This document shows, in pieces, positions 17,202 through 62,899 of a stretch of DNA of 64,000 bases; the first letter of the stretch is position 1; the number at the start of each line of letters is the position of its first letter. The translations under genes were made by a program, and so were the position numbers. This stretch comes from Candidatus Woesearchaeota archaeon (GTDB lineage: Archaea > Nanobdellota > Nanobdellia > Woesearchaeales > JABIAG01), in contig JABIAG010000002.1 of NCBI GenBank assembly GCA_018653365.1, positions 42,614-106,613 on the forward strand. The letters run 5' to 3'. The notes beneath the pieces are model-generated. The model was not told the DNA's origin, made no database searches, and saw only the letters and a program-made list of their open reading frames with translations.

Positions 17202-17948
17202 ATGGCTTCTATTGGATTGTGGAAAAAGGCGGCAAACATTGAGGGGGTGGGTTTACTTTCAACTACTGGTGTTTATTCCAAGATTAAAGGGATGGGTTTG
17301 AAAACAGTTCAATGGATTAAGTTTTCGCCAAGTTCTAAAAAAGATATTCTAAATATGAAAAAGCGGTGTTCAGAATTCATAACTAAACATACCCCCTGTT
17401 TGTTTATTTGGGAGCCAAGACACACTGGTGAGAAAGGTTATATTATTGATGTGAATGAAATAAGTCAAGTTGTTGAGTCATTAGCTAGTTTGCCTGTTTT
17501 GGCTTATTCTTATTTGATCACTACACAAATATCTAATCCTAAAAAGGGATTCATTGGAAGTGTAATCTCTGATGGTAAAGGGAAGTTGTATTGCGAAACT
17601 TATCATGAACCAGGAATTTGTAGTCATCGTGTGTTAAGTCAGTCAAAAATAGATGAGAATAAATCAAGTTTTTTTGGTAGATTCTCAACAGTAAATTTCG
17701 ACCTATTTAATTTGGAAGGAAGTGTTTTATCTTCTGCTAATGTGAGAACTATATTGAATAATTATTCTGGTATGAAGGGCTATTTTGAGTTTGTTTACGG
17801 TGTCCATCTGGGAAATTGGGAGTTGTGTACAACTGGTTTTGAGAATTTGGGTTTTATCACCTTTCCCGAACACGTTGTAAGCGCAGCTTTAAGTAGTACA
17901 GGAAACCGTTGGCGTGCTGAAACATTAAGACATTATTCTGATTTCTGA
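17202..17948 (+). CDS. Hypothetical protein
   Basis: 248-aa ORF, no motif recognised. Confidence 0.65.
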   Translation: MASIGLWKKAANIEGVGLLSTTGVYSKIKGMGLKTVQWIKFSPSSKKDILNMKKRCSEFITKHTPCLFIWEPRHTGEKGYIIDVNEISQVVESLASLPVLAYSYLITTQISNPKKGFIGSVISDGKGKLYCETYHEPGICSHRVLSQSKIDENKSSFFGRFSTVNFDLFNLEGSVLSSANVRTILNNYSGMKGYFEFVYGVHLGNWELCTTGFENLGFITFPEHVVSAALSSTGNRWRAETLRHYSDF

Positions 17949-18014
17949 CAAGGTGAACGTTAGAGAGCTTTTTCAGAAATCTCTGATTTCTGACAGAGTG
18001 AACAAATAGCTTTT
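17937..18014 (+). repeat. 45-nt-period imperfect tandem repeat containing a type C palindrome
   Basis: TCTGATTTCTGACA at 17937 and 17982; TCAGAAATC-TCT-GATTTCTGA at 17973-17993. Confidence 0.8.
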
Positions 18015-18204
18015 CCTTTAACAATCGTACCTTTGATTTTATTTAAGAATGTTTTTTCTATTTTTTTATTACATTTACTGCATTTCATATTCTGTATAAA
18101 TCTGGTTTGATATATAAAACTTACTCATAACAAAAACAATATTTTTGAACTTATCTGCAATAAGTACCAAAAAATATATAAGGCAATTAATCCATTTTTT
18201 ACTT

Positions 18205-18780
18205 ATGCCCGATCCAGACGTAGTTGCAGATATAAAAGTAGTTTATCAAGATCCTTTTCATTTTAAGAATTTGTACAAGCTTATTTTCCGTTTCTTATTG
18301 GATCATGGTTATTTGGATAAAAAGGTTTCTCCTGACACTAAAATGGAAATTTTGTATTCTGAACAGGTAAGATCTGGCGATGTGAAAGAGTATCATATTT
18401 GGTGGAGAACTAAGAAACAACCTAAAAATAGTTATTTTTTGTATAAGATTGATATTGATTATCTTGGATTGGGTGTTAAGAATACTGAGGTTTTACAAGG
18501 GGATAAAAAGCATAAAATGCAAATTGGCGAGATTACTATTCTGCTTAAGGGCACTTTAATGTTAGAAGCAAATGATTCTAAAGGTAAGTGGGAAACTGGT
18601 TTTTTAAGGTATTTTCGTAATTGGTTTAGAAATAAGTGGTATCATGCTAAGATTGAACAACATGAAGATGAATTGTATGAAGATGTTTACAAATTACAAT
18701 CTTTTATTAAGGAATATCTTGAACTTAAACAGTTTGGTGTTTCTCCTGAGATTTTCTTTAAGAGAAAGGGTTTCGAATAA
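18205..18780 (+). CDS. Hypothetical protein
   Basis: ATG 18205 about 25 nt after a TATA; 191 aa. Confidence 0.75.
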   Translation: MPDPDVVADIKVVYQDPFHFKNLYKLIFRFLLDHGYLDKKVSPDTKMEILYSEQVRSGDVKEYHIWWRTKKQPKNSYFLYKIDIDYLGLGVKNTEVLQGDKKHKMQIGEITILLKGTLMLEANDSKGKWETGFLRYFRNWFRNKWYHAKIEQHEDELYEDVYKLQSFIKEYLELKQFGVSPEIFFKRKGFE

Positions 18781-18817
18781 TAACTTTTATAAAGTAATTA
18801 TCTCTCCCCGTTATTGT

Positions 18818-18903
18818 GCCCCCGTAGCATAGTAGCTATTGCGTTTGACTTGTACGTTTTCAAGGATATCAAAAGGTCGTGAGTGCAACTCTCACCGGGG
18901 GCC
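18818..18903 (+). tRNA. tRNA-Thr(TGT) with 13-nt intron at 37/38 (18855-18867)
   Basis: GCCCCCG/CGGGGGC; TTTGA-CT-TGT-A[intron]A-TCAAA; relaxed BHB (CTTG/CAAG). Confidence 0.88.
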
Positions 18904-18962
18904 TTATTATAACTTGTTTTCAAGTTATGATATTCAAAAATCAGAGATTTTTGTTTTATTAT
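18904..18962. mobile_element. Two-hairpin mini-insert flanked by TTATTAT repeats
   Basis: ATAACTTG-TTTT-CAAGTTAT and CAAAAATC-AGA-GATTTTTG. Confidence 0.55.
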
Positions 18963-18963
18963 C

Positions 18964-19857
18964 ATGAAACCTTTTTGTTTAGCGCCAATGGCGGGAATTA
19001 ATTCAACGGCTTTTAGACTTCTTTGTAAAGAGAACGGTGCAGATATAATCTATACTCAAATGTATGATGTTAACTTATTATGCACTAAGACAAAAGAAGA
19101 AGTTAAAAAATTGCTTAATATTAAAAAGGAAGAACATCCTGTTGTGATCCAATTAATTGGATCTAACCTGAAAAAGTTTCGACAAACAATTCCGTTGGTG
19201 GAAGGTCTTGCAGAAGAGATTAATATTAATGTGGGCTGTATAGAAAAAAGGTATTTAGAACACGATTGTGGTGCAGCTTTGTTAAAAGATCCTGAAGAGT
19301 TGGGATATCTTGTTAAAAGAATTGTTGCATGTACTAAAAAACCAATCAGCGTAAAAATCAGAATTGGGTGGGATGGACAATCTCTTAATGCAGTAAAAGT
19401 TTGTAATATTCTTGAAGATAATGGGGTTAAAAAGATCATTATTCATGGAAGAACGGCAATGCAGAAGTATGCGGGAAAATCTAATTGGACTATTATGAAA
19501 CAGGTTAAAGAAAAATCATCCATTCCAATTATCGCTAATGGTGATGTTAAATCTTACCAGGATGGTCTGGACCTGTTAGAACGTACTGGTTGTGATGAGG
19601 TTATGGTGGGACGAGAAGCTAAATATGCGCCCTGGATTTTTAGTAACAAGCAACTAACAAAAGATGACATTATTAAACAAATCCTGAGATATATTGAACT
19701 TTACGAAACGTATGAAAATAGATGTTCCGTTAGTGAAGTTTACGATCAAGTTTTCAGAATGACGAGAGATATTGAAACTACAATAAATAAAAGGGATGTT
19801 AAAGAATGCGCTTCCATTGCCGAGATCAAACAGTTTATTTCGGGGCTGAATTCTTAG
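18964..19857 (+). CDS. dus: tRNA-dihydrouridine synthase
   Basis: LAPMAG, ININVGC, VKIRIG, IHGRT, IANGDV, VMVGR. Confidence 0.92.
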   Translation: MKPFCLAPMAGINSTAFRLLCKENGADIIYTQMYDVNLLCTKTKEEVKKLLNIKKEEHPVVIQLIGSNLKKFRQTIPLVEGLAEEININVGCIEKRYLEHDCGAALLKDPEELGYLVKRIVACTKKPISVKIRIGWDGQSLNAVKVCNILEDNGVKKIIIHGRTAMQKYAGKSNWTIMKQVKEKSSIPIIANGDVKSYQDGLDLLERTGCDEVMVGREAKYAPWIFSNKQLTKDDIIKQILRYIELYETYENRCSVSEVYDQVFRMTRDIETTINKRDVKECASIAEIKQFISGLNS

Positions 19858-19902
19858 TGAAAAACAGAAAACAATTTAAATGGTTTAGTTATTGTTGGTT
19901 AA

Positions 19903-20457
19903 ATGAACAAACAAGCGATTATGGCATGGGTTGTAGCACTTATCTTTATTTCTAGTGCATTTGGTATGGTTGCTAGTAATATGACTTCCTCAAAAATAAG
20001 ATACAACGATCACGTTATTAATGTTGGAGAAGATCGATATTTCTATGAAGTTGATGATGTAGAAGTTTCTTTTTATTCTTCGCCAGGTTCTGTTGAAAAT
20101 GTGGTTCTTCCTGAAGACTTTGTTGGAGTTTTAAGAAATACTAAGATGATTTATATGACTGCTGAACTTAATGATACTTTGATTGAACCTATCAGTGTTT
20201 TAATTTTTGATGTTAGTAAGTATGTTTTTGATACTGATTCAGTGTATGTTCAACCCGCTTTTACTACAAATGAGACTGAACTTCCTAAAATAACTTGTGA
20301 AGATGCGTCTTCTTCGGTTCCAGTAGTATACCTAAAGAAGGGATTAACGAGATCTGCAAGTTTTGTAGATAATTGTTTGAATATTACGGTTGCATCTGCT
20401 TATGATGTTGCATCATATCGTGATAGATTATTATATGGTTTTTATGGGGTAATTTAA
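19903..20457 (+). CDS. Membrane-anchored hypothetical protein, paralog of the next gene
   Basis: N-terminal TM; ITC..PVVY..NC..DRLLYGFYGVI. Confidence 0.75.
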   Translation: MNKQAIMAWVVALIFISSAFGMVASNMTSSKIRYNDHVINVGEDRYFYEVDDVEVSFYSSPGSVENVVLPEDFVGVLRNTKMIYMTAELNDTLIEPISVLIFDVSKYVFDTDSVYVQPAFTTNETELPKITCEDASSSVPVVYLKKGLTRSASFVDNCLNITVASAYDVASYRDRLLYGFYGVI

Positions 20458-20458
20458 G

Positions 20459-21139
20459 ATGGAAGAACACGAAGTTAAAGATGTGGAAGAGCAAGAACTT
20501 GATAAAAGAAGCCAACGAAATATGATCTTTGTTATTGTTATTATTGCACTAGTGGTTATTGGCTTTATTGCGTTTAAAGCATTTCACGAACCTGCACCTC
20601 AAACGGTTGATGATGTTTTTCAACAAGCTCTTGATGGCAAATTGGATGAGGATGTTGCATATAGTTACAATGGCTATGTTTTTGTTAACATTATGGGTTC
20701 TTGGATGACGCGTATTCAGGTAGGAAATGAGATGATTGAAATTCCTTTACATTTCGGTCCAAGAGATTTAGAAAATAATATTAGTATTATGGGTTCAGTT
20801 GATAACCGGTTTACTAGTAATCCTAACTTGTTTATTACTTTTGATCCTAACTCTACACAAATGAAGTATATTGCGTTGTCTGCTGCTGAACTGAGTTTAA
20901 GTCTGGCTAAAGGTATTAAGGTTAATCCTGTTGCGGCTTGTACCTCCAATGAAACAGCTTGTGAGGGTCGTCCAATTGTTACTTGTGATTCAACTAACGC
21001 GCCAGTAATTTATATCAAGAAGGATAGTGATGCTATGATCGTTCAATCAGGTAATTGTGTTATTCTTTCAGGTAATGAGTGGGACCTGGTTAGAGTTGTT
21101 GATAGATTCTTATTGGCTTGGTATGGGATCATGCCTTAA
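20459..21139 (+). CDS. Membrane-anchored hypothetical protein
   Basis: N-terminal TM; VTC..PVIY..NC..DRFLLAWYGIM. Confidence 0.75.
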   Translation: MEEHEVKDVEEQELDKRSQRNMIFVIVIIALVVIGFIAFKAFHEPAPQTVDDVFQQALDGKLDEDVAYSYNGYVFVNIMGSWMTRIQVGNEMIEIPLHFGPRDLENNISIMGSVDNRFTSNPNLFITFDPNSTQMKYIALSAAELSLSLAKGIKVNPVAACTSNETACEGRPIVTCDSTNAPVIYIKKDSDAMIVQSGNCVILSGNEWDLVRVVDRFLLAWYGIMP

Positions 21140-21483
21140 ACTTCTTTTATTTTATTTTCTTCTGTTGTTACAATTCGCATACCTACTCCTAATTTTAACA
21201 CTGCACTGATTATTGCCATGTGTTCAGTTCCAGTTCCAGAAATTAAATTGACTGCGACCTCTTCAAAGCTTAATTTATTTTTTAAACTAGCGTGGATCTG
21301 ATCTCTCATCTCGTTAACATTGCCTTTCACAACTATTAGCTCTGCTTTTTCATGTGTGAATTTTTCTTTTCCGAAATCATTTGTAATTAAGAATACTTTT
21401 TCCCATGGTTCTGAGTCTATCAGTTTGATTACTTCTGTCCAGGTTCCTTTACCGGTTGATAAGCAGGCGATTAGTTTGGTCAT
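21136..21483 (-). CDS. Small Rossmann-like (possibly CARF-like) protein
   Basis: IACLSTGKGT, KVFLIT, VAVNLISGTG. Confidence 0.6.
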   Translation of the reverse strand: MTKLIACLSTGKGTWTEVIKLIDSEPWEKVFLITNDFGKEKFTHEKAELIVVKGNVNEMRDQIHASLKNKLSFEEVAVNLISGTGTEHMAIISAVLKLGVGMRIVTTEENKIKEV

Positions 21484-21558
21484 TATATAATTAATCTTCT
21501 TTTGTTTTTAACTTTTTTGCTCCAAAAAATTTATATACTCAAAACCTTAGGTATTTTT

Positions 21559-22023: not shown

Positions 22024-22063
22024 AAAGAAAACAATTAAATACTCCCTTCTTTAAAATAAACCT

Positions 22064-23485: not shown

Positions 23486-23577
23486 AAAAGTTTATAACCC
23501 GTTTTTATGCTCAGAACTGAATGAAATAATGTTATGCGGTAGAAACCTTTTTATAAGACTTATTTAACATCCTTTTA

Positions 23578-24018: not shown

Positions 24019-24064
24019 TGATGAAATGTAATGAATTAATCTCAGAAGGGAGTGGAGCGTACTG

Positions 24065-24700: not shown

Positions 24701-24732
24701 AATATTTAAACTCCGACCAATTATTTAAGCAC

Positions 24733-26670: not shown

Positions 26671-26789
26671 GCGCCTGTAGCTCAGCCTGGATACCGGAAA
26701 ATCTTGATTTTACTGGATTGACCCGGTAGGGTAAATAGAGTGGCACCCTCCTAAGGTGAAGGTCCGGGGTTCAAATCCTCGCAGGCGCG
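26671..26789 (+). tRNA. tRNA-Arg(CCT) with 44-nt D-loop intron (26691-26734)
   Basis: GCGCCTG/CAGGCGC; BHB with GCCT/GGGT helix and GGA/AAA bulges; splicing restores AGCCTGGATA. Confidence 0.88.
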
Positions 26790-26852
26790 TAACGGAGTGA
26801 AGCAACTGCGTAGGTGTTGGGAACGTAAGTGACCACATCTCGCAGGCGCGTA
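26778..26852 (+). mobile_element. 47-nt structured insert between 14-bp duplications of the tRNA-Arg 3' end
   Basis: CTCGCAGGCGCGTA at 26778 and 26839; hairpin GTGT-T-GG-GA-AC-GTAA-GT-GA-CC-ACAT. Confidence 0.75.
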
Positions 26853-33574: not shown

Positions 33575-33632
33575 AAACTTTATACAACGTCACTCTGTTC
33601 CGAGCATAAAGTTTTCTTTGAAAAACTTTATA
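33575..33632 (-). mobile_element. Type B mini-insert between duplicated AAACTTTATA
   Basis: Reverse complement of 33583-33607 matches 62866-62890 at 20/25; 10-bp repeats at 33575 and 33623. Confidence 0.7.
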
Positions 33633-37882: not shown

Positions 37883-38794
37883 ATGAAACATGTTATTGAA
37901 TCTCAACAGTTTGACAAAGAGACTCTTATTGAAATATTCAACAAAGCCGAAGAATTAAGAACTGCTTCTTCTAATATTTTAACTGGAAAAGTTTTAGCAA
38001 CTCTTTTTTACGAACCCAGTACGCGGACTAGACTTAGTTTTGAGTCTGCAATGTTGAAATTAGGGGGTGATGTTATTGGAACAGAGAACGCAAGTGAGTT
38101 TTCTTCTGCTGTCAAAGGAGAGTCATTACAGGACACAATTCGAATTGTTTCTTCTTATGTTGATGTGATTGTTTTAAGACATTTTGAGACAGGTTCGGCC
38201 AAGGTTGCTTCTGAAGTTAGTTCAGTTCCAGTTATTAATGCGGGGGATGGTTCTGGGCAACATCCCACTCAAGCAATATTGGATTTGTACACTATTTGGA
38301 GAGAGCAAGGTGGATTGGATAATTTAACTATATTAATGGTTGGAGACTTGAAGTATGGCAGAACAGTTAGCTCTCTTTGCTATTTATTAGGTAAATTCAA
38401 AGATAACAAGATCATTTTTATCTCCCCTTCAAACTTAAAAATAAAGTCTGGAATAAAAGAGTACTTGGAAAAACACGATACTAATTTTGAAGAAAGTTCT
38501 GAATTAAACCCTCATTTACAAATTGCAGATGTTATTTACTTGACAAGAATTCAAAAAGAAAGAATGTCTGAAGAAGAATACAATAATGCAAAAGGATTGT
38601 ATGGTATTAACCAAGACAATTTCCATTTATTGAAAGAGAGCGCGAGATTAATGCACCCTCTTCCTCATATTGAAGAAATATGTCTTCCATTGGCTGTTGA
38701 GGGTTCTGATAAGCGAGTAGCGTATTTTAGGCAAGCAGAGAATGGTTTGTATGTACGAATGGCTTTGTTGTTGCGTTTGTTAAGTTCTAGTTGA
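37883..38794 (+). CDS. pyrB: Aspartate carbamoyltransferase catalytic subunit
   Basis: FYEPSTRTRLSFE, HPTQ, TRIQKER, HPLP. Confidence 0.96.
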   Translation: MKHVIESQQFDKETLIEIFNKAEELRTASSNILTGKVLATLFYEPSTRTRLSFESAMLKLGGDVIGTENASEFSSAVKGESLQDTIRIVSSYVDVIVLRHFETGSAKVASEVSSVPVINAGDGSGQHPTQAILDLYTIWREQGGLDNLTILMVGDLKYGRTVSSLCYLLGKFKDNKIIFISPSNLKIKSGIKEYLEKHDTNFEESSELNPHLQIADVIYLTRIQKERMSEEEYNNAKGLYGINQDNFHLLKESARLMHPLPHIEEICLPLAVEGSDKRVAYFRQAENGLYVRMALLLRLLSSS

Positions 38795-39296: not shown

Positions 39297-39461
39297 ATGA
39301 CGACAACAATTAAACGAAAACTATATCGGCGTGGTAGCTCATTTGAGACCACTATTCCCATGCCACTTCTATTTGCTCTAGATAAAAAAAAGAAACACGA
39401 TGTAATCTTCACTTTTGATCCTAAGAATAATCGGTGGTACATAGACTTCAAGAAATCATAG
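39297..39461 (+). CDS. Small AbrB/SpoVT-like DNA-binding protein (54 aa, not in ORF track)
   Basis: MTTTIKRKLYRRGSSFETTIPMPLL...WYIDFKKS; RK....G.S...TIP pattern. Confidence 0.75.
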   Translation: MTTTIKRKLYRRGSSFETTIPMPLLFALDKKKKHDVIFTFDPKNNRWYIDFKKS

Positions 39462-39487
39462 TTTTTGGCGAAACTCGGTGTTTGGAA

Positions 39488-39621
39488 GGGGGAAAGGTCT
39501 TCGGATCTTCCCTTCCAACTTTTAATCAAGATGTAGGCTCGACTGAAAGGAGACCTACTTCGCTTGGCATTGGCGAAAGAATGCGGGGGAAAGGTCTTCG
39601 GATCTTCCCTTCCAACTTTTA
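39488..39621 (+). mobile_element. Type A 60-nt insert between perfect 37-bp direct repeats
   Basis: GGGGGAAAGGTCTTCGGATCTTCCCTTCCAACTTTTA at 39488 and 39585. Confidence 0.85.
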
Positions 39622-46815: not shown

Positions 46816-46855
46816 TTCGACTTTAGTCGTGCCAGAAATCTTGTATTTCTGAGCA
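46816..46855. mobile_element. Type C two-hairpin mini-insert
   Basis: CGAC-TTTA-GTCG then TGC-CAGAAAT...ATTTCTG-A-GCA; relatives at 49528 and 62378. Confidence 0.65.
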
Positions 46856-46938
46856 TTTCTTAATTTTTTTCTAACAATAAACTTTAAAAAACCCCACTTT
46901 CATGTTAAGTTCATAACTGATGGTTGTGGAGGGATAAA

Positions 46939-50563: not shown

Positions 50564-51025
50564 ATGAACTCGAAAAAAGAATTGGTTTTATTAAGTAAGT
50601 TGCGTAATAACTCCCGACAGAGACTCACCACTTTAAGTAAAGAAACCCGTATTCCGGTCTCAACAATTTTTGAAATGTTGAAACGAACGAATAAAATAGT
50701 TAAGAATACTTGTTTGTTGAATTTTACTGAGTTGGGGTATTCTATCCGTGCAACCATTACCTTGAAAGTAGATGCTCAACAGAAGAACCAGGTGTCTGAG
50801 TTTTTACTCAAGATTCCAAATCTTAATTCATTATATAAAATAAATAATGGTTATGATTTTATGTTGGAGGTGGTGCATAAAGAAATGAGGGATCTAGAAT
50901 TGTTTCTTGAACTATTAGATTCAAAATTCATCATTAAAGAGAAGAACGTTTATTATGTGATTGACGAACTTCTGCGGGAGTCTTTTTTAGTTGAGGAATC
51001 AAATATTGATCTGTTTAAGCTTTGA
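50564..51025 (+). CDS. Lrp/AsnC transcriptional regulator
   Basis: HTH NSRQRLTTLS...STI, LNFTELG, GYDF. Confidence 0.88.
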   Translation: MNSKKELVLLSKLRNNSRQRLTTLSKETRIPVSTIFEMLKRTNKIVKNTCLLNFTELGYSIRATITLKVDAQQKNQVSEFLLKIPNLNSLYKINNGYDFMLEVVHKEMRDLELFLELLDSKFIIKEKNVYYVIDELLRESFLVEESNIDLFKL

Positions 51026-51074
51026 TAAAAGTTTGAATACTCAGAACGAAGTGAGGTTGTGTTTAAACTTTGAT
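51012..51074 (+). mobile_element. Type B mini-insert between 15-bp (14/15) direct repeats
   Basis: TGTTTAA(G/A)CTTTGAT at 51012 and 51060; core 51037-51061 matches 62866-62890 at 23/25. Confidence 0.75.
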
Positions 51075-53225: not shown

Positions 53226-53357
53226 GCGGGAGTGGCAGAGTGGTCAAATGCGCTAGGTTGAGGTAGACGAAAATCAAGATTTTCGAAGTTCGTAAGTCTT
53301 CGACTTCAAACGCCTAGTTCCTTAGTGGATGCGCGGGTTCGATTCCCGTCTCCCGCA
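53226..53357 (+). tRNA. tRNA-Leu(GAG) with 48-nt intron at 37/38 (53264-53311)
   Basis: GCGGGAG/CTCCCGC; long variable arm; BHB TTGA/TCAA with GGT and ACG bulges. Confidence 0.92.
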
Positions 53358-53442
53358 TTTCTTTTTTTTTGTCTGAGCGAAGTGAAGTGATGTTGCGCGA
53401 GAACATTTTCTCGCCGTAGGTGCAATTCCCGTCTCCCGCATT
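53342..53442 (+). mobile_element. Structured insert between duplicated tRNA-Leu 3' ends
   Basis: ATTCCCGTCTCCCGCATT at 53342 and 53425; CT-GA-GC-GAA-GT-GA-AG hairpin. Confidence 0.75.
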
Positions 53443-53526
53443 AGTCCTTTTGTGTTTTTTGTGTTATACTCTTTATCACCAAAACCTTTATAAATATCCC
53501 ATCTCTTTTTAGATTCGGTGATAATC

Positions 53527-53934: not shown

Positions 53935-53973
53935 AAATCTTTTTAAATTATTTTTTACTTGTTTCTATTCAAA

Positions 53974-56238
53974 ATGAAAAAAGATGTTTCGTTAAAGGTT
54001 GCTGAGGCAATCCAGGATGATGTTAATAAAGGAATCGTTAGGTTAGATTCATCTTTTATGAAAGATTTAAGTATTAATCCGGGCGATGTTATTGAGATTG
54101 AAGGGGAAAAAAAGACTGTTGCTATTGTTGATCGTTCTTATCCAGGGGATATTGGGTTAGGTATTATTCGTATGGATGGACTTATACGTCGTAATGCCAA
54201 GACTGGTTTGGGTGAGTCTGTTAAAATAAGAAAAGCTGAAGTTAAAGAGGCTAAGAAGGTTACTATTGCTCCTGCAAAAAAAGGAATTGTTGTAAGAGCT
54301 TCTCCAAATACGTTTAAGCGAGGTCTTTTGGGCAGAGCGGTTTTGAAGGGAGATATTATTTCTTTAGGTGGGGTAAAAAGAAGAAAGACTACTACTAGTG
54401 ATAATCCTTTTTTTAATGAAATCTTTTCTCAAGATGACCGGTTTGCATCTTTTTTTGCTGATCTAAAATTTATTGTTGTTAATACTGATTCTAAAGAACC
54501 TGTTATCATTAGTGAGAATACTGAAATTAGTTTGAATCCTGAAGCTGTTGAGCTTCAAGAAGAGACCGTTCCGGATGTTACTTATGAGGATATTGGGGGC
54601 TTGGATGATGAGTTGAAAAAAGTTAGGGAAATGGTCGAGCTTCCTTTAAAACATCCTGAAATTTTTGAAAGGTTGGGAATTGAACCGCCAAAAGGGGTTT
54701 TAATGCATGGTCCTCCTGGTACGGGTAAAACTTTATTGGCTAAAGCAGTTGCAAATGAAACTAATGCTCATTTTATTTTAATAAACGGTCCTGAGATTAT
54801 GTCTAAATTTTATGGTGAGTCTGAGGCTAATTTAAGAAAGAAATTTGAAGATGCTGAAAAGAACGCCCCATCTATTATTTTTATTGACGAAATTGATGCA
54901 ATTGCTTCTAAACGAGAAGAGACTCATGGTGAAGTAGAAAAAAGAGTTGTTGCTCAGTTACTTGGACTTATGGATGGTTTGCAAAGTCGTGGTAAAGTTA
55001 TCGTTATTGCTGCTTCTAATATTCCTAATGTTCTTGATCCTGCTCTAAGAAGACCGGGCAGGTTTGATAGGGAGATGGAAATTGGTGTGCCTGGTAAGGA
55101 CGCACGTTTAGAAATTTTAAAAATTCATACAAGAAACATGCCTCTAGAAAAAGATGTTAAATTAAAAGATTTAGCAGAGATAACTCATGGTTTTGTTGGT
55201 GCTGATTTAAGTGCTTTAGCTAAAGAGGCGGCTATGACGGTTTTAAGAAGAATTTTCCCAGATATTCAAAATAAGGAAGAATCCGAACCGATTCAAAAAG
55301 CGGTTTTAGAAAAATTGATTATTCATCAAGCAGATTTTATCGAAGCACTTAAAGTTGTTAGACCTTCTGCTCTTAGAGAGGTATTTGTTGAAAGGCCTAA
55401 TGTTACTTGGGAAGAGGTTGGTGGTTTAGAAGAGACCAGGCAAGAGCTTACTGAGGCTGTTGAGTGGCCCCTGAAGAATCCCCAAGCTTTCAAACGTTTA
55501 GGTATTAAACCCCCAAAAGGAATTTTATTGTATGGTCCTCCTGGTACGGGTAAAACTTTGCTTGCAAAAGCTATTGCTACTGAAACTAAAGCTAATTTTA
55601 TCTCAATTAAAGGTCCTGAACTATTGTCTAAGTGGGTTGGAGAAAGTGAAAAGGCAGTTCGCGAAATTTTCAAGAAAGCTAGACAAACGAGTCCAACTAT
55701 TGTTTTCTTTGATGAGATTGATTCTATTGCACCTAGTCGTAATGCCTCTTCTGATAATAAGGTTACTGAACAAGTAGTTAACCAATTACTTACTGAAATG
55801 GATGGTTTGGAAGATTTACAAAATGTGGTTGTAATTGCTGCAACGAATAGACCTGATATTTTGGATTCGGCGTTGCTAAGACCAGGTAGGTTTGATAGAT
55901 TGTTGTTAACTCCTGTTCCTGATTCAAAAGCGAGAGAGAAAATTTTCCAGGTACATACTGCAAGCATGCCCTTGAAAGAGGTTAATGTTAAGAATTTGGC
56001 TGGCCTGTCTGATGGTTATGTTGGGGCAGATATAGAAGCTATTTGTAGAGAGGCGGCTATGCTTGCTCTACGAGAGGATATTAAGGCTAAAGAAGTTACT
56101 GAAAAACATTTTGAAGATGCATTAAAGAAGGTTCATCCCTCTGTTAATAATGATATCAAGGAAGCTTATGATAATTTAGAAAAACAATTTAGGATGCAGA
56201 AGGCCAAAGAGATGGATACTGTTAATTATATGGGCTAG
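53974..56238 (+). CDS. cdc48: CDC48/p97 AAA+ ATPase
   Basis: N domain plus two GPPGTGKT / DEID / RPGRFD modules. Confidence 0.97.
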
Positions 56239-56247
56239 TTTTTTTGA

Positions 56248-56299
56248 GTATGCTCGACTGAAAGGAGACATACGTCGCTTCCCATTGGCGAAAGAATGG
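56248..56299 (+). mobile_element. Type A mini-insert
   Basis: GTATG-CTCGACTGAAAGGAGA-CATAC...CCATT-GGCGAAAG-AATGG; compensatory changes versus 39533-39584. Confidence 0.85.
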
Positions 56300-56312
56300 T
56301 GGGGTAAATGAA

Positions 56313-56624
56313 ATGAAATTATCAACAAATGAAAATATGGGTAAAAATTATGAAGTTTTAGGTATGGTTAGAGGTAATACTGTACAAGCTAAACATCTTG
56401 GCCGAGATTTTATGGCTGGGTTAAAAACAATTGTTGGCGGAGAAATTAAGGGGTATACTGAAATGTTGACTGAGGCTAGAGATCGGGCTACTAATCGAAT
56501 GGTTGAGGAAGCTAAAAAGTTAGGCGCTGATGCAATTGTTTCTATTCGTTATACAACTTCTGCTATCATGCAGGGTGCTTCTGAAGTTTTAGCTTATGGT
56601 ACTGCTGTTAAGTTTAAGAAGTGA
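56313..56624 (+). CDS. YbjQ / UPF0145 family protein
   Basis: GLKTIVGGEIKGY, LGADAI, AYGTAV. Confidence 0.92.
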   Translation: MKLSTNENMGKNYEVLGMVRGNTVQAKHLGRDFMAGLKTIVGGEIKGYTEMLTEARDRATNRMVEEAKKLGADAIVSIRYTTSAIMQGASEVLAYGTAVKFKK

Positions 56625-56731
56625 TGGGCTTGAGCTGAAAGCGAAACCCATTTCGGGTGCTACTAACGAAAACGTAGTGCGTGGCGCTTCTGAAGTTTTA
56701 GCTTATGGTACTGCTGTTAAGTTTAAGAAGT
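56577..56731 (+). mobile_element. Type A 63-nt insert between perfect 46-bp direct repeats
   Basis: Repeats 56577-56622 and 56686-56731; ATGGG-C-TT-GA-GCT-GAA-AGC-GA-AA-CCCAT. Confidence 0.85.
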
Positions 56732-57417: not shown

Positions 57418-57470
57418 TTTATTAAGTAACTCTTATTATTATTTAAATCTATCTTTTCTTATTAAAGTGA

Positions 57471-57548
57471 TGGCGCCCTCGCCGAGATTCGAACTCGAGT
57501 CACCGCCTCGAGAGGGCAGTATGATTGACCGGACTACACCACAAGGGC
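57471..57548 (-). tRNA. tRNA-Glu(CTC), CCA encoded
   Basis: GCCCTTG/CGAGGGC-G-CCA; CTGCC-CTCTCGA-GGCGG. Confidence 0.95.
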
Positions 57549-57585
57549 ATTAGAAAAAGAAGTTTTATCTAATTTTTAAACGTTT

Positions 57586-59244
57586 CTAATTAATGCCTCT
57601 TTCATAATGGCCTTTTGTATGTCCTTTTCCTATTTTTTTGGTGTTTATCTTCTCTCCTTCAAGGATTCGAGAATAAATATCTAACCATTTTTTCACATTA
57701 GAAGTTAGGTCAAAATAGAATTGTGTTATGCCGCTTTTTTTTAATTCTAATACTTCATCTAATAGTGCAATTTGTTTTGAGTTTAGTATTTTATAGTAAT
57801 CCTTTTCTTTTTCAACAATGAATTTATATCCTTTGTCGTCTTTTATCATTCCAGGCAATTTGTTTTTTGTTGTCATTACGGTAATGTTTCCATGTACTAA
57901 AACCAAGAAATCCTTATTTTTAAAATGAGTTAATTCATCAAAGTTAAGTTCTGGGCTAATTATGCTTTTACCATAAAAGTTTAAATCATAATCGTTGAAT
58001 ACGTTCATTCCATAATCTGTGATGCAGTTATCAAACTTGTTTTTAAATCCAAAACTGTTGATAAGTACTCCGTCAGGGTTTATCTCTTTCACTTTTTTAA
58101 TATAATCCTCTATCTCTTTATCATTAACTATTGTTGGCAGGGTTAGGTAAAACTTTTTGTTGTTATCTTTACAAATTTGTTTTGCTTCAAGAACGTCTTT
58201 GTTGTCAGCATAGTAAAAGATTGTTTTCACTCTTGAAAATTCACACCCTTCACGCACTCCTTTAAGCGTATTTACTTTAACGTAAAATCCTGGCTCGCTT
58301 GCAATTTTTTCTTTTATTTTCGTGATTACTAATTTTTTTCTTTCTCTTTCTACTTTTATTTCCTGTTTGTTATTTACATATTTATAATTAAAGTCTATTT
58401 CTTCAAATTTTAGGTTGTGTGGGCTAGTTTTTTTCTCACAGTTCGAATAAAAGCCCTCTGTTAGTTCACGATTAAAAACCCCTTTTAAACAGGCAAGATC
58501 TTTTTCGTTAAATCCTTCATCTAATGCTTTTCGATAAAGTTTTGTCACAGTTTCAACATATTTTTTATTTCGTAATCTTCCCTCAACTTTCAGGGAAGCA
58601 ACATTCAGTTCTTTTATTTTACTAATTAAACTTAAATCTTTCATGCTCATTAAGTATTCATCATTGTATTTTTTTCTGCAGGGTTGTGCACACATTCCTC
58701 TATTGCCACTTCTGCCTCCAATAAATGAACTCATTAAACATAGACCTGAAACACAAAAGCATAGTGCACCCTGTACAAATATCTCAATGGGCATTCCGAT
58801 TTTGGATATTTCTTCTATTTCTTTTTTATTTAATTCACGAGGCAAAATAACACGATCAACATTTTTTAACTCTTTCAAATTATGTATTCTTGCTTGTGTT
58901 GAAGCATGTACCTCTAAATCAGGAAATGTTTTTTTAATTTGTGAGGCAAAACTTAATTCTTGTATTATTATTGCATCTGCTCCAGAAATGTATGCTTGTT
59001 CTATTGTTTGAAAGAACTCTTCAATTTCATTATTTTTAATTAATGTATTTAGAGTTACATAAACTTTGACGCCATTTTTGTGGCAGTACTCAATTGCCTT
59101 TTTTAATTCTTCAAATGAAAAATTTCCTGCTTTTGCTCTAGCATTAAACTTGTTCATTCCTAAATATATTGCATCTGCACCATTCTCAACTGCTGCCTGT
59201 AAGTTGGTTGCGTTTCCTGCAGGAATTAGTAATTCTGGCTTCAT
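57586..59244 (-). CDS. U32 family protein (RlhA/TrhP-like RNA hydroxylase)
   Basis: PELLIPAG, GADAIY.G, HASTQ, C...SG.C...SGNRG.CAQPCR, KVEGR. Confidence 0.9.
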   Translation of the reverse strand: MKPELLIPAGNATNLQAAVENGADAIYLGMNKFNARAKAGNFSFEELKKAIEYCHKNGVKVYVTLNTLIKNNEIEEFFQTIEQAYISGADAIIIQELSFASQIKKTFPDLEVHASTQARIHNLKELKNVDRVILPRELNKKEIEEISKIGMPIEIFVQGALCFCVSGLCLMSSFIGGRSGNRGMCAQPCRKKYNDEYLMSMKDLSLISKIKELNVASLKVEGRLRNKKYVETVTKLYRKALDEGFNEKDLACLKGVFNRELTEGFYSNCEKKTSPHNLKFEEIDFNYKYVNNKQEIKVERERKKLVITKIKEKIASEPGFYVKVNTLKGVREGCEFSRVKTIFYYADNKDVLEAKQICKDNNKKFYLTLPTIVNDKEIEDYIKKVKEINPDGVLINSFGFKNKFDNCITDYGMNVFNDYDLNFYGKSIISPELNFDELTHFKNKDFLVLVHGNITVMTTKNKLPGMIKDDKGYKFIVEKEKDYYKILNSKQIALLDEVLELKKSGITQFYFDLTSNVKKWLDIYSRILEGEKINTKKIGKGHTKGHYERGIN

Positions 59245-59311
59245 GAGACTATTACTTTTTTGTCGTTTATATACTTTTGGGGAAGTTTTTTAAGTATTAT
59301 CTTGTTTTCTT

Positions 59312-60145
59312 ATGGCAATGATTGCTTGGAGAGAGACTTTAATGGCAGGAGCATTGCTTGTACCTCTTGCTACTGCAACTCGAACCCCTATTGATTACAA
59401 GCCCAAGAGAATGGCATTTAGTTCTAAGCCCCTTCCAAAACCACCTTCTCGACCTGATGTTTTAACACAGGATGAAGCCTCCTTGTTTAGTCAGGTTAGT
59501 GCGGCAGTTGCCGAAAGACACAGGGTAAGTTTTGGTTTAACTATTATTGATGAGTCCATGTTTCCACCAGGAGTTAGGGGACAAACTATTGCAGATCTTT
59601 GTGCACGAGGTAGATTGCCACGAAGAATTCCTGCAAGATATTTTCCTGCAATCCAAGATATTGTGCAACGCAAGGGTGCACGTTATTTCTTGCGTCGTTT
59701 ATCTTACTTTCAAGAGGAAGTTCAAAAGAAGGATAGTTTGTGGCATAGTGTTTATTTAAGTAATCCCTCTGCCGATGATTTGTATAAGCGTTCAGCATTT
59801 CATGAGATCGGTATGGGTATTTTTGATGTTCTGATGAATGATCATCAAGATCTAATTTTAAACTTTGCTGATATTGATGTTGCTTCTGAGTGTTGGAAGA
59901 CAACTTCTGGAGAGGCACATCCTGCGCATCCATCTTTTTTTAGTTTTTTTTATGCCTCTTGTCCTAAAGCAGATTATGTTTGTAAATTAGTTGGTGCTCG
60001 TCGTACATTTGCAGATATTTATGCATTGAGAATGATGGACTGTATTCCTGATGAATCCGGGGATGTTCTTTTAGATAAAAAGGTTCGGGCTGTTGAACAG
60101 GTGTTGGCTCCGTATAGATTAATGCCTGAATCCGAAAAACAATAA
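59312..60145 (+). CDS. Hypothetical secreted protein with a degenerate zincin-like motif
   Basis: N-terminal hydrophobic stretch; HEIGM...TFADIYA. Confidence 0.6.
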   Translation: MAMIAWRETLMAGALLVPLATATRTPIDYKPKRMAFSSKPLPKPPSRPDVLTQDEASLFSQVSAAVAERHRVSFGLTIIDESMFPPGVRGQTIADLCARGRLPRRIPARYFPAIQDIVQRKGARYFLRRLSYFQEEVQKKDSLWHSVYLSNPSADDLYKRSAFHEIGMGIFDVLMNDHQDLILNFADIDVASECWKTTSGEAHPAHPSFFSFFYASCPKADYVCKLVGARRTFADIYALRMMDCIPDESGDVLLDKKVRAVEQVLAPYRLMPESEKQ

Positions 60146-60180
60146 CGTTTATAAATCTTTTATCTTCTCTTTCATCATAT

Positions 60181-60299
60181 GCCACGGTGGCACAACCTGG
60201 TACTGCGCAAGCCTGGAAACTTACTTCAGTAAGTTCTGAACGTAAGTGAAGATAGCTTGTTTCCGCAAGGATATCCCAGTTCAAATCTGGGTCGTGGCG
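60181..60299 (+). tRNA. tRNA-Ser(GGA) with 35-nt intron at 37/38 (60219-60253)
   Basis: GCCACGG/TCGTGGC; CAAGC-CT-GGA-A[intron]A-GCTTG; long variable arm. Confidence 0.88.
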
Positions 60300-60312
60300 T
60301 ATTTTTTTCAAA

Positions 60313-60975
60313 ATGATCACTAAACCATTTTTAGGATTGGTAAATAAGTTTAAGCCATATTCTTGTAATGCTTCGCATGTTATCAAATTATTTGATCATA
60401 AATCTGATAGTCGGTTTGAAAGTTTTTTAACAGATTCAAGAGTTAGACCGTTGATCATCATGCATTTATTGTTTAATTTTCTTAAAACAGATTTTGTTAT
60501 TGGTCATGAAACTAGGACTTTTTATTATAAGTATGCTGATGAAACTCCAAATCCGCCAAAAGAGATTGTTTTAAAAGAGTCTGTTGTTAATAAACAATTT
60601 TCTGGTGAAGACCTATTTAATCTGTTATTAAGCCGAATTGGTTTAATGCAACTTAATATTCCGTTTGTTGCTTTTGAGGGTGAAGAAAAGTTATCTGAGG
60701 ATGTTGTTCCCTCAAAAGTAGATGAAACTTGGTATGAAGAAGTTGGTGAAGAGGTTTTTTTTAGTTTAGATGGTAGTTTGATTATTTATCCAGATAAGAT
60801 TCTTGTTTCAGATGATTGGAAAGAAAAGGTTGAAACAATCATTTCTTGTTATTATGATACTTTTAATGAGTTTCTTGAATCATCTAAGTCTTTACCTTCT
60901 ATTGATCACAAGTTGTATGTTGAATGGCTGGTTAAGTGGTTTCCTGGAATGATTCATTTTAAGAGTTTAGAATAG
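60313..60975 (+). CDS. Hypothetical protein
   Basis: 220-aa ORF. Confidence 0.6.
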   Translation: MITKPFLGLVNKFKPYSCNASHVIKLFDHKSDSRFESFLTDSRVRPLIIMHLLFNFLKTDFVIGHETRTFYYKYADETPNPPKEIVLKESVVNKQFSGEDLFNLLLSRIGLMQLNIPFVAFEGEEKLSEDVVPSKVDETWYEEVGEEVFFSLDGSLIIYPDKILVSDDWKEKVETIISCYYDTFNEFLESSKSLPSIDHKLYVEWLVKWFPGMIHFKSLE

Positions 60976-61021
60976 TACATTTTACTAAATCTTTTTAAAT
61001 TATGTTCAATTTGTTAAGTGT

Positions 61022-62002
61022 ATGCCTTATATTATGTCTGAAATTGATACGCCGACCTTTCATGCAGGTATTTTTATGAGTGATTGTGATATGATTGCTC
61101 CGGTGATTGTACCTGGTCCGCAAGGTATGCAGACTACTGGTGATTTCTTTCGTGCACACCAACAGGCTCGAGATGTTTTTTTTCCTTGGGCTGCTACTGC
61201 CGGCATTGGCCAGTATTCTTTGAGAGGGGCGTCTGCTAGTTTGTTAACGAAAATTATTGATGATGTTAGATTGCCTACTGGGGCAGAATTGGTTCACAGT
61301 AGAGATTATGATGGGGAGCAACTTGGGGGAGATCGTAAGCTTGTTAGAACAATTATGCTTTCACGAGTTGTTAAAGGAGATCGTCCTAAAGATTTGTATG
61401 GGTTGGTGGAAGATCTTGATCTGGCTACTGTATCTGGAACTGAGTTAGTGCCTCAACACTATGAATTTTTTCATGCAACTAATGAGGGGGATGTTTATCA
61501 GCATCCGTTAATGCGTGATTTAAACACATATTCTCCGGAAGAGATGGTTTTGTTGGGTAAGATTTCATATGGAGAATCTCCTGAGGTTATGGGGTTCTGG
61601 CCAGATGGCGGTAAGGAACGTATTGATTATGCTCCTGCAATTAGTGCGGAGTTTAGGCATGCTTGGGCGCTTGATCATGCAATGAAGCGAACTGAAAATT
61701 ATGATCATATTTTGACGCAAGTTGAGAGGGTTATGGCTGCAAGATTGTTTAAGCTACCTGAAAGTCAAGAAATTCGTGCTTTAATGTTAGAGGACCCAAT
61801 GGTTGGTTGTAGTGCGGGTGTTTGTTCTAATTGTTATCATCCTGTTGCTTTTTGTAATAATGCTTGTCCTTCTGAAACAGGGGGTTGCGGTTATGATTTT
61901 GGTTCTCTGGTTGGTCCTTCAATTGATGTGTGGGAAACTCTCTCTAAGCCAGATAAAGAAAAGTGGGGGTATTCCCATTGCAGAGAAGCGCGTGATTGGT
62001 AG
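61022..62002 (+). CDS. Hypothetical protein with Cys-rich C-terminus
   Basis: CSNC...CP.....CG zinc-ribbon-like. Confidence 0.6.
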   Translation: MPYIMSEIDTPTFHAGIFMSDCDMIAPVIVPGPQGMQTTGDFFRAHQQARDVFFPWAATAGIGQYSLRGASASLLTKIIDDVRLPTGAELVHSRDYDGEQLGGDRKLVRTIMLSRVVKGDRPKDLYGLVEDLDLATVSGTELVPQHYEFFHATNEGDVYQHPLMRDLNTYSPEEMVLLGKISYGESPEVMGFWPDGGKERIDYAPAISAEFRHAWALDHAMKRTENYDHILTQVERVMAARLFKLPESQEIRALMLEDPMVGCSAGVCSNCYHPVAFCNNACPSETGGCGYDFGSLVGPSIDVWETLSKPDKEKWGYSHCREARDW

Positions 62003-62113
62003 TTCTCCTCTTTAGAATAGACGACAACATCGAAAAGTTTATATATTAGTTTATGCAGGATAAACACTAGACGTTTATAATAACGTAAAAAAAATATTTG
62101 GGGGTAAATAAAA

Positions 62114-62350
62114 ATGGCACAAAAAGTTACTAAAGTTGGAGTTAAAAAAGAAAAAGGTTACCTATATTTCGTTGACAAAGCAGGTGATGTTTCTAGAGCA
62201 GTTATGGCAAGAGGCGGTCGAAAGAAAGGACAGAAAGGTAAAAAGGAAAAAGTCGCTAAAGCTGGTGTTAAGAAAGAATCTGGATACTTGTACTTTGTTG
62301 ATAAGCAAGGTGATGTTTCTAGAGCTAAAATGGCTCGTGGAAGGAAATAG
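62114..62350 (+). CDS. Small basic protein with a tandem internal duplication
   Basis: KV.K.GVKKE.GYLYFVDK.GDVSRA.MARG twice; GGGGT RBS. Confidence 0.85.
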   Translation: MAQKVTKVGVKKEKGYLYFVDKAGDVSRAVMARGGRKKGQKGKKEKVAKAGVKKESGYLYFVDKQGDVSRAKMARGRK

Positions 62351-62377
62351 ATTCCTTCATTTTTTATTTTTTTATTT

Positions 62378-62415
62378 CCAACGTGTTGGTGCCAAAAATC
62401 TTGGATTTTTGAGCA
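62378..62415. mobile_element. Type C two-hairpin mini-insert
   Basis: CCAAC-GT-GTTGG then TGC-CAAAAATC-TTG-GATTTTTG-A-GCA. Confidence 0.65.
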
Positions 62416-62456
62416 TTTTAGATAAGTTTTTAAACTAGTTCTGCTTACCCATAAGT

Positions 62457-62855
62457 ATGAAATACTTTAAAGCGTTCGTAGCAGGTATGATTTTGCCAGC
62501 GGTTATAATGCCATTTCTTATTGCATATTTTGTTTTACAGGGTGAAGCAAGTGCTATTGGAAAACTTCCTTTGTTGTACTTTGGTGCATTGTTATGGGGA
62601 GTTTGGAATGTAGTATTTGTAATTACAAGAAAACATGTTCCTATTGTTGATCGTAATGTTAAGTTGGGGGCTTATGGTGTTGTTTACGGACTTATTTCTG
62701 CTTTAGTTAATTCTTTATTGTTTGAGTTTACTTCTGTGATTCCCTCTTTTTCAGATGCTTTCATTATTTGGGCGATTATTGGTTATCCTATTTTACTTTA
62801 CTTTGCTTGGAAGTATGTAGTTAATGCATTTAATCTTATTTTTGAAGTATACTAA
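62457..62855 (+). CDS. Four-TM membrane protein
   Basis: Hydrophobic pattern, WG.WN motif. Confidence 0.75.
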   Translation: MKYFKAFVAGMILPAVIMPFLIAYFVLQGEASAIGKLPLLYFGALLWGVWNVVFVITRKHVPIVDRNVKLGAYGVVYGLISALVNSLLFEFTSVIPSFSDAFIIWAIIGYPILLYFAWKYVVNAFNLIFEVY

Positions 62856-62899
62856 CTTTGTTAGTATGCTCAGAACGAAGTGATGTTGTGTATTAGCTT
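62847..62899 (+). mobile_element. Type B mini-insert between convergent stops
   Basis: ATACTAAC-TTT-GTTAGTAT overlapping ATGCTCAGAACGAAGTGATGTTGTG. Confidence 0.7.

Follow-up and report, generated by a model that had tools for sequence, protein, structure and literature searches.

The 64,000-nt window analysed here raises the question of how short, folded segments of DNA come to lie at many places in one archaeal genome. DPANN archaea with small genomes are thought to be poor in mobile elements. Here, across a whole order, inserts of 25-65 nt have repeatedly reshaped tRNA loci and the ends of genes. The family fails the defining tests of every transposon class checked. The reading that we prefer, and to which we give about even chances, is that of fold-defined, non-coding, non-autonomous DNA inserts which lack terminal inverted repeats and would have been copied in during replication or repair. 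Coordinates are positions in the window unless a contig is named; the window's own genome is referred to as G000.

Anatomy and fold of the inserts

Three copies of an element of 53-55 nt, composed of a bulged hairpin and an H-type pseudoknot, are present on the plus strand. They lie at 39532-39584 (covariance model R1, 83 bits), at 56247-56299 in the spacer between an upstream gene and a ybjQ-like gene (79 bits), and at 56623-56677 (model R2, G000:C3:99236-99290, and alignment). The last one is divergent and keeps the same fold with other stem sequences. The full form (about 53-62 nt) is made of a 5-bp stem, a single bulged C, 2-3 more pairs, a G.A mismatch and a variable apex, followed in its 3' part by the H-type pseudoknot with two 5-bp stems. 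The second hairpin of the long type is one half of this pseudoknot. At least five shorter relatives (26814, 33582 on the minus strand, 51037, 53372 and 62866) consist of a lone hairpin with a GA/GNA mini-hairpin cap, whose apex reads GA / NCG-N(N)-AGN' / GA. In the minus-strand copy at 33582-33607, a CG/CG pair replaces CA/TG. Hybrid copies indicate that the modules of the element are interchangeable. Related sequence is present at each of the nine main positions that the earlier note had assigned to its types A and B. As for the copies it described as decayed, the one at 23507-23536 (plus strand) is a probable short-type copy, sharing the 5' part and bearing a degraded cap, and the matches at 24041 and 36205 are not strong enough for a call.

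The cap motif GAACG-N(1-2)-AGTGA occurs five times in the window, always on the plus strand, with 0.07 occurrences expected; one of the five (38086) lies within coding sequence and looks like a chance match. The core CG-N(N)-AG is found in 14 of the 18 genome-wide cap matches, with five different covarying flanking pairs. The cap thus combines this core with a Watson-Crick closing pair, as in mini-hairpin DNA. Nearest-neighbour folding of the short form showed no significant stability.

Covariation of the stems, proposed from the copies in the window, proved far stronger once the copies of other genomes were included. In the alignment, 96.7% of the paired cells form pairs, and 15 of the 19 base pairs have changed on both sides. 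None of 500 shuffles matched the observed level of pairing, and slid controls reached about 40%. The pseudoknot stem, which is absent from the model, is paired in 92% of cases and changes, for example, from TTCG/CGAA to CTCG/CGAG and TCCG/CGGA. The fold is kept by compensatory changes on one strand, and U.G pairs fix which strand folds. The view that the inserts are non-coding and non-autonomous, with a fold under selection, is supported. The G.U pairs and GNRA apex loops would equally suit an RNA intermediate.

The tandem GA/GA attributed to the long type is not supported. Columns 9 and 43 covary (12 C-G, 8 U-A), and since C/T changes in column 9 go with G/A changes in column 43, the arrangement reads as a Watson-Crick pair beside the single bulged C rather than as a k-turn. 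In the G060 subtype, column 10 forms a G-C pair. A kink-turn with a 3-nt bulge and tandem sheared G.A / A.G pairs was thus rejected for the long type. The short type shares with L7Ae-bound kink-turns and K-loops the tandem G.A near a short loop and D'-like and C'-like boxes, but has no 3-nt bulge; a K-loop is a possible reading of it.

Unpaired bases and the exact 3' end are strictly conserved across many families of the order. This conservation suggests recognition by a specific protein, i.e., a dedicated factor. The Pfam searches reported below covered a few families, and such a factor could escape them.

Empty sites, target duplications and distribution

In sister genomes, the element is absent at five loci, and the repeat sequence is visibly single-copy at four of these. 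The element at 39532 lies between two identical copies (100%) of a 37-nt target, 39488-39524 and 39585-39621, which is the terminator hairpin downstream of an AbrB-like gene. It is missing at the orthologous site in G001, G003 and G004, and the 37-nt target is single-copy in G001:C10. The element at 56623 lies between the copies of a 46-nt duplication of the ybjQ-like 3' end (56577-56622 and 56686-56731; 46 nt exact, 54 nt at 94%), of which the right copy retains the original TAG stop and T-run of the gene. In G001, G003 and G004, this 3' end is present once, without an element. The element at 56247 has a degenerate 8-nt repeat (56231-56238 and 56300-56307), and its two flanking genes abut in G003. 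The short-type element at 51026-51059 (plus strand) lies between 14-nt repeats (51012-51025 and 51060-51073) of a gene's last codons and stop, and is absent from the orthologous spacer in G001:C4. Because the sister genomes have empty sites, the elements are insertions with target duplication, as the earlier note had proposed. These genomes are just 65-87% identical, and the empty sites are accordingly orthologous sites rather than alleles.

Two further inserts follow tRNA genes. After tRNA-Arg(CCT) (about 26671-26789), a short-type insert with two GA-capped hairpins (26792-26838, plus strand) is flanked by 14-nt repeats of the tRNA 3' end (26778-26791 and 26839-26852). After tRNA-Leu(GAG) (53226-53357), the insert at 53358-53424 (plus strand) comprises a T-run, a GA cap and a further hairpin module (53372-53414), and is flanked by 16-22-nt repeats of the tRNA 3' end (53342-53357 and 53425-53440). 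The hairpin module of 53372-53414 recurs at G000:C2:12403, between 30-nt repeats. Short-range direct repeats are real at six loci of the window, the one at 17937 described below included.

Across the genomes, 7-62 nt of target are duplicated per insertion. Direct repeats of 11-62 nt flank more than half of the copies and about 1% of random sites. A repeat score of at least 14 was reached by 22 of 40 copies in other genomes and by 0.9% of 1500 random sites; about 15 of the 40 copies have no flanking repeat. The junctions show polarity: the element's 3' end meets the target within 0-5 nt (median right gap 1 nt), and on the 5' side there are 0-70 nt of T-rich filler (median 11 nt). In short forms, the 5' side may bear an inverted copy of the target start. 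Such inverted arms were seen at tRNA-Phe, G000:C1:528180, 62866 and G002:C4. A cap-less event of the same geometry lies at 17937-18003 (plus strand), where 22-nt direct repeats of a gene end (17937-17958 and 17982-18003) enclose an inverted 9-nt copy of the target (17973-17981).

The palindromes grouped as type C in the earlier note do not belong with types A and B. They are a heterogeneous set, in which 26698 and 53268 are hairpins within tRNA introns, 46818-46856 and 62378-62416 form a separate double-hairpin family without flanking repeats, and the remainder consists of the cap-less snap-back duplication at 17937-18003 and lone palindromes.

The covariance model retrieved 10-12 copies in G000 and 14 in G060. 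Copies are present in 9 of 61 related genomes and in 30 of 151 sampled genomes of the order. Assembly artefacts or chance similarity in AT-rich spacers can practically be dismissed as an explanation. Tandem arrays in G002 do coincide with assembly gaps, as an artefact would predict; against it, the same fold and repeat geometry recur in 30 independently assembled genomes, and chance is excluded by the covariation statistics and the random-site control.

The targets are not arbitrary; they are mainly tRNA genes, of which the initial or terminal 11-27 nt are hit, and the ends of other genes. At least 17 of 40 copies lie beside or within tRNA genes, and the tRNA body is on the 5' side of the element in 12 cases versus 1-2 on the opposite side. 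Selection for a terminator or promoter, and not the mechanism of insertion, could be the cause of both this polarity and the T-rich filler. Copies also reside in introns of tRNA-Gly(CCC), of tRNA-Ser(GGA) and of a second tRNA in G091, the last one identified by eye only. These copies are passengers of canonical introns. The GA cap at 60235-60252 (plus strand), for instance, was rejected as a free insert, as it lies in the canonical intron (about 60216-60250) of tRNA-Ser(GGA) at 60181-60299.

Location at transcript ends, often with a T-run ahead, would also be expected of non-mobile cis modules, such as terminators, insulators, protectors of RNA 3' ends or protein-binding sites. These would spread by gene-end replacement, through recombination with foreign alleles bearing the module, and the displaced gene end would become the second repeat. 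In G002:C3, the gene-linked repeat indeed differs synonymously from the distal copy, which resembles the G000 allele. Allele replacement, however, cannot reach unrelated loci, and near-identical elements occur in at least 12 contexts of one genome. Moreover, the elements may point either way with respect to a tRNA gene and occur in the antisense direction within tRNA introns, and the inverted target arms require new synthesis. This explanation is therefore held to be very improbable.

Machinery and known element families

No match to a known RNA family was obtained. The gathering scan of the window against Rfam 15 matched tRNAs only, and when four element regions were scanned by E-value, no hit fell below E = 0.18 and all were far under the cut-offs. 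Searches for mobilising enzymes gave the following picture. RVT_1 was not found in G000, G003, G023, G038 and G060, two of which are rated 100% complete; among the six carriers tested, only G091 has it. In G000, neither Cas1, nor Y1_Tnp and the TnpB zinc-ribbon domain, nor DDE_Tnp_1 and rve, the transposase families searched for as a MITE parent, were found. No ORF recurs near the copies, and no true copy was detected in the viral contigs scanned. G000 has three tyrosine recombinases, one of which abuts a short-type copy: the element at 62866-62893 (plus strand) lies directly past the stop of the Xer-like recombinase gene (62898-63722, minus strand). Close relatives of this gene occur in 14 of the 151 genomes, five of them with the element, and most carriers are without the gene. 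Co-occurrence with enzyme genes, which the earlier note had proposed to check, was seen only as the adjacency of the Xer-like gene to one copy; there is no co-occurrence at family level, and HUH/Y1, reverse transcriptase and LAGLIDADG genes do not track the element.

Several known classes resemble the inserts in part. MITEs are likewise miniature, non-coding, multi-copy and intergenic. They differ from the inserts by their terminal inverted repeats, a duplication of fixed, short length and the existence of a parent IS. The ends of the element are unrelated to each other (hairpin and pseudoknot), and with repeats of 7-62 nt and neither DDE_Tnp_1 nor rve in G000, a MITE was rejected. REP/BIME sequences (RAYT, Y1 HUH) and the palindromes of IS200/IS605 are also small, intergenic, structured, free of ORFs and located at gene 3' ends; a folded single strand is recognised and the orientation is linked to replication. 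They yield no target duplication and need a Y1 transposase, whereas the inserts duplicate 7-62 nt of target and are pseudoknotted. As Y1_Tnp and TnpB are lacking in G000 and duplications are present, derivation from these families was rejected as well. Casposon or Cas1-type integration was discarded because of the missing Cas1 in G000 and the variable length of the duplication, and an integron attC or Xer-exploiting site because the adjacent Xer-like gene does not co-occur with the element.

SINEs, LINE/SINE pairs and R2, which use target-primed reverse transcription, share non-autonomy, a structured 3' end, an affinity for tRNA genes, an exact 3' and a ragged 5' junction, and variable duplications. 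The inserts are ten times smaller and have no 3' A-tail on the folded strand. Nothing like SINEs or R2 is known from prokaryotes. In RNA-mediated retroposition of the SINE or R2 3'-UTR kind, the element would be a structured RNA whose 3' end is defined; its reverse transcription would be primed by a nick in the target, and a second, staggered nick would produce the variable duplication. The varying lengths of the duplication, the exact 3' junction combined with a ragged 5' side that at times holds extra or inverted sequence, the association with tRNA genes reminiscent of tRNA-linked retroposons, and the G.U pairs and GNRA loops speak for this route. It is nonetheless judged improbable, given that five of the six carriers tested lack RVT_1, on which ground a SINE-like retroposon was rejected, that the A/T-rich run is at the 5' and not the 3' end of the folded strand, and that the cap motif is much more stable as DNA (PMC13037366).

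Another, unlikely, explanation is a dedicated but unrecognised trans enzyme that would act on the element as a folded single strand and insert this strand at staggered cuts. A structure-specific nuclease or a tyrosine recombinase acting in attC or Xer style would be candidates. Like attC-type sites, the elements conserve a bulged base and mismatches; their 3' end is exact, their distribution is patchy and parasite-like, and there is the recombinase abutting a short-type copy. However, the relatives of this recombinase are found in only five carriers, tyrosine-recombinase and HUH reactions do not yield variable duplications, and neither a recurrent ORF near the copies nor a true copy in the viral contigs scanned came to light.

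Proposed copying during replication or repair

The pseudoknotted fold, the lack of inverted repeats, the duplications of 7-62 nt, the polar junctions, and the absence of reverse transcriptase and known transposases point either to an unrecognised enzyme or to mobility driven by replication or repair. The nick-primed or strand-invasion-primed mechanism put forward earlier is consistent with the exact 3' and ragged 5' junctions, although unproven. In the preferred reading, insertion by copying would take place at the DNA level, without reverse transcriptase. While DNA is replicated or a break is repaired, in many cases next to strongly transcribed tRNA genes, a DNA 3' end would copy the element and run off at the element's exact 3' end. 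Synthesis would then restart on the target upstream of the point of departure, so that the target is duplicated. The very stable mini-hairpin may favour snap-back copying and thereby produce the inverted arm. Host proteins of replication or repair, or else an unrecognised trans factor, would supply the activity.

A more specific version is tentatively considered, with a modest probability. The elements may be transposase-free ssDNA folds on the lagging-strand template which act as priming or template-switch signals and are copied in by the replisome with variable duplication. DNA ends that stall near heavily transcribed tRNA genes would use, as stray templates, short nascent strands whose start coincides exactly with the foot of the fold. 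Two observations hint at a DNA-level process, as in the preferred reading. The G-rich strand carries 20 of 23 copies compared to 64% of long ORFs, a modest bias among clustered copies. Mini-hairpin DNA motifs (GCGNAGC / GCGNNAGC), far more stable as DNA than as RNA, are found at primase start sites of ssDNA phages, namely the origins of G4, St-1 and alpha3, and at ssiA, which the primase RepB' binds (PMC13037366). The short-type cap shares the CG-N(N)-AG core and the sheared G.A pair of these motifs and likewise lies on the expected lagging-strand template. In phages and plasmids the motifs serve as origin signals at fixed places, whereas the elements are dispersed and mobile.

If the replisome version is true, the inserts would represent a mobile element of prokaryotes that the replisome itself drives. 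They would also offer a concrete route for the arrival of archaeal tRNA introns, as landing at a spliceable site in a tRNA gene would give rise to an intron or lengthen an existing one. Transposition of archaeal tRNA introns was proposed for Thermoproteales (reviewed in PMC4090602), disruption of tRNA genes driven by mobile elements has been described (PMC3293823), and a 2026 preprint still calls the arrival of tRNA introns open (10.64898/2026.10.13.758758). As in intron transposition, several tRNA genes carry related short sequences, some of them within introns; in contrast, most copies lie outside the mature tRNA between target duplications, and no recombinase-bearing parent was found. The clustering at tRNA genes and the intron copies provide a testable handle on the origin of archaeal tRNA introns and gene fragments. 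Annotation is also misled, since the inserts duplicate gene ends, introduce new stop codons and hide tRNA genes from standard finders. ARAGORN, for instance, calls the tRNA-Ser(GGA) gene once 60216-60250 is deleted.

Structure and distribution of the elements

The genome under study (G000) comprises 1.09 Mb in three contigs with a G+C content of about 34%. In the window, which spans C3:42614-106613, genes are tightly packed, and the coordinates singled out in the earlier note fall in short spacers or tRNA genes. A long-type unit of 53-55 nt lies at 39532, 56247 and 56623, and simple motif searches found about ten further units genome-wide. Its hairpin begins with a 5-bp stem and a single, invariant bulged C, continues with two or three pairs and a G.A mismatch, and ends in a variable apex; an H-type pseudoknot of two 5-bp stems lies 3' of it. 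The covariation proposed earlier for the stems is borne out. In an alignment of 33 copies, 96.7% of the proposed structure is paired, and 15 of 19 pairs change on both sides. None of 500 shuffles attained any of these measures, and slid controls reached about 40% pairing. Only the two nested helices guided the alignment, and the crossing stem was left out of the model; this pseudoknot stem is still 92% paired, with compensatory variants. U.G pairs occur at three positions (10, 9 and 4 sequences), and the listed strand is therefore the folded one. As for the tandem GA pairs previously described, they do not hold for the long type: the base in question covaries in Watson-Crick fashion. A k-turn reading of the long type was also ruled out by covariation.

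Short-type copies, at 26814, 33582 (minus), 51037, 53372 and 62866, consist of the hairpin alone. The apex is formed by a cap comprising two pairs, tandem G.A and an NCG-N(N)-AGN' mini-hairpin. Five matches to the cap core, all of them on the plus strand, lie in the window, where 0.07 would be expected; one of these, at 38086, falls within a coding sequence and looks fortuitous. Genome-wide, pairing flanks surround 14 of the 18 cap matches, in five different pair combinations. By nearest-neighbour folding, the short type does no better than shuffles; its support comes from motif recurrence and the covarying flanking pairs. The cap matches the "mini-hairpin DNA" motif, whose stability is much greater in the DNA than in the RNA form; SSB binds this motif poorly, and it is present at ssDNA-phage primase start sites and at ssiA (PMC13037366). 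Several hybrids (G000:C2:11324, G002:C3, G023 and G060:C65, the last three in related genomes) carry the short-type cap as a long-type apex. Therefore, the two types are modular relatives, in agreement with the shared fold noted earlier for types A and B. A third hairpin module is found 3' of the cap at 53372 and G000:C2:12403.

The family was then delimited with covariance models, as the earlier note had proposed. A model trained on eight G000 copies recovered 10 copies in this genome and was positive in 9 of 61 relatives. With a training set of 27 copies, 12 copies were found in G000, and 30 of the 151 sampled genomes of the order were positive, with 1-14 copies each. In an exact-pattern scan of species genomes, nine matches were confirmed by the covariance model, eight of them from Woesearchaeota or "archaeon" MAGs and the ninth from a MAG bearing the label Methanosarcinales; the model rejected a further six, all bacterial. 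In viral contigs, one exact pattern gave no match and a looser one gave 20, none of which was accepted by the model. The comparison with Rfam, also suggested earlier, returned no match to the elements at gathering or E-value thresholds.

Insertion sites and junctions

The copies in the window are flanked by short-range repeats. In other genomes, a flanking repeat score of at least 14 was reached by 22 of 40 copies, compared with 0.9% of 1500 random sites. Empty sites with a single repeat copy, for which the earlier note had suggested a search, were found in three related genomes (G001, G003 and G004). There, the locus of the ybjQ-like gene (56313-56624) has no element on either side and the gene's 3' end is single-copy, as is the terminator hairpin duplicated around 39532. 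Moreover, two insertions in the relative G002 correspond to empty sites in G000, and in one case the alignments of the two flanks share the 29 nt of the repeat. The G001 spacer orthologous to 51037 lacks the short-type element and is too diverged to reveal a repeat. Allele replacement is an improbable explanation. Tandem arrays of repeat and element occur in G002, G060 and at G000:C1:592200.

Transfer RNA genes are frequent targets. At least 17 of 40 copies adjoin or sit in one, with additional cases seen by eye. The tRNA-derived repeats comprise either the 3' end from the T loop on or the initial 11-27 nt of the gene. Relative to the element, the tRNA body is 5' in 12 cases, which include both tRNA orientations, and 3' in one or two. 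Antisense copies within the canonical intron of tRNA-Gly(CCC) are present in two genomes; a third intron case, in a G091 tRNA read as tRNA-Ser, was identified by eye only. Within G000, the long type is located 3' of protein-gene stops, and the short type 3' of tRNA-Arg, tRNA-Leu and tRNA-Phe. Two tRNA genes of the window were missed by default ARAGORN and Rfam: tRNA-Arg(CCT) at 26671-26789, whose D loop holds an intron of about 44 nt, and tRNA-Ser(GGA) at 60181-60299, whose 35-nt canonical intron contains the cap at 60235. Blind ARAGORN deletion scanning was too permissive to delimit an intron by itself.

The two junctions differ. The right repeat begins 0-5 nt past the last pseudoknot base (median 1 nt), whereas on the left an unrelated filler, mostly T-rich, extends over 0-70 nt (median 11 nt). 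Repeat boundaries show no target-site motif apart from A/T richness on the intergenic side, and microhomology at the return junction does not exceed about 1 nt. In short-type copies, an inverted copy of the target start often stands directly 5' of the cap, giving the order target, short loop, inverted target, cap, target. Examples are the tRNA-Phe gene just outside the window, G000:C1:528180, 62866 and G002:C4. The arms at tRNA-Phe and G000:C1:528180 are clearly target-specific; some others resemble a local promoter palindrome and may be the element's own. The order target, loop, inverted target also occurs without a cap at 17937-18003, where a gene end is duplicated both directly and inverted but encloses no element. 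Such an event points to template switching of the same geometry taking place spontaneously in G000.

Mode of insertion and candidate machinery

There is an even chance, in our estimation, that the element is a fold-defined DNA insert copied in from its 3' end. Such copying would take place, 3' end first, in the course of replication or repair. The duplication would result from fill-in or resumed synthesis, and the inverted arm from snap-back at the hairpin. In regions of clear GC skew (|skew| >0.05), the G-rich strand holds 20 of 23 G000 copies of both types, compared with 64% of long ORFs. On contig C1, the skew reverses near 500 kb, a likely origin or terminus.

The co-occurrence with reverse transcriptase, LAGLIDADG or Xer genes envisaged earlier was not observed, as none of them tracks the element family. 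RVT_1, Cas1, Y1_Tnp, TnpB, DDE_Tnp_1 and rve are all absent from G000 in a candidate-gene search of its own genome. RVT_1 was not found in five of six carrier genomes (G000 and five others), G091 being the sole positive. An RNA route for insertion is unlikely. The three G091 reverse-transcriptase ORFs (about 520-575 aa) are at C44:19047, C52:51215 and C51:345. Because tRNAs in G000 have free-standing LAGLIDADG genes beside them, co-occurrence with this domain was examined. It is present in 100 of 151 genomes, carriers show the background rate, and G060, the richest carrier, has none. Furthermore, a survey of 55 loci found no protein family recurring within 1.5 kb. A dedicated enzyme hidden from these searches is doubtful, somewhat less so than an RNA route.

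The Xer-like recombinase gene adjoining 62866 has no association with the element family. This gene (62898-63722, minus) encodes a second XerA-like tyrosine recombinase, with 40% identity to G000:C1:543819. Its orthologues (48-66% identity) occur in just 14 of 151 genomes of the order; therefore, it may be part of a mobile element.

Double-hairpin units and other features of the window

The AAAATC-n-GATTTT palindromes (type C), formerly placed in the same family, turned out to be a mixed set. Those at 46818-46856 and 62378-62416 belong to a double-hairpin family between T-runs, distinct from the elements; the others comprise hairpins of tRNA introns, isolated palindromes and the snap-back event at 17937-18003. 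The double-hairpin family has at least 6-8 units, including those at G000:C1:668655, 640756, 532865 and 222262 (minus strand). Each unit is composed of a T-run, a 4-5-bp hairpin, TGCC, an A-rich/T-rich 6-7-bp hairpin, GAGCAT and a T-run. Both hairpins covary, and the units have neither flanking repeats nor an Rfam match. They are invariably 3' of a gene stop and thus may be a small RNA or terminator module.

Two further stretches were noted. A conserved non-coding stretch 3' of an AbrB-like gene (39461-39524) starts with a U-rich/GGCGAAAC leader, followed by a GC-rich hairpin and then a T-run. G001, G003 and G004 retain this stretch, its hairpin showing compensatory changes, and it has a 9-mer in common with the element pseudoknot. 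Finally, an 88-nt internal repeat (76% identity) lies inside a small ORF at 62121-62334, which would give the encoded protein two similar halves.
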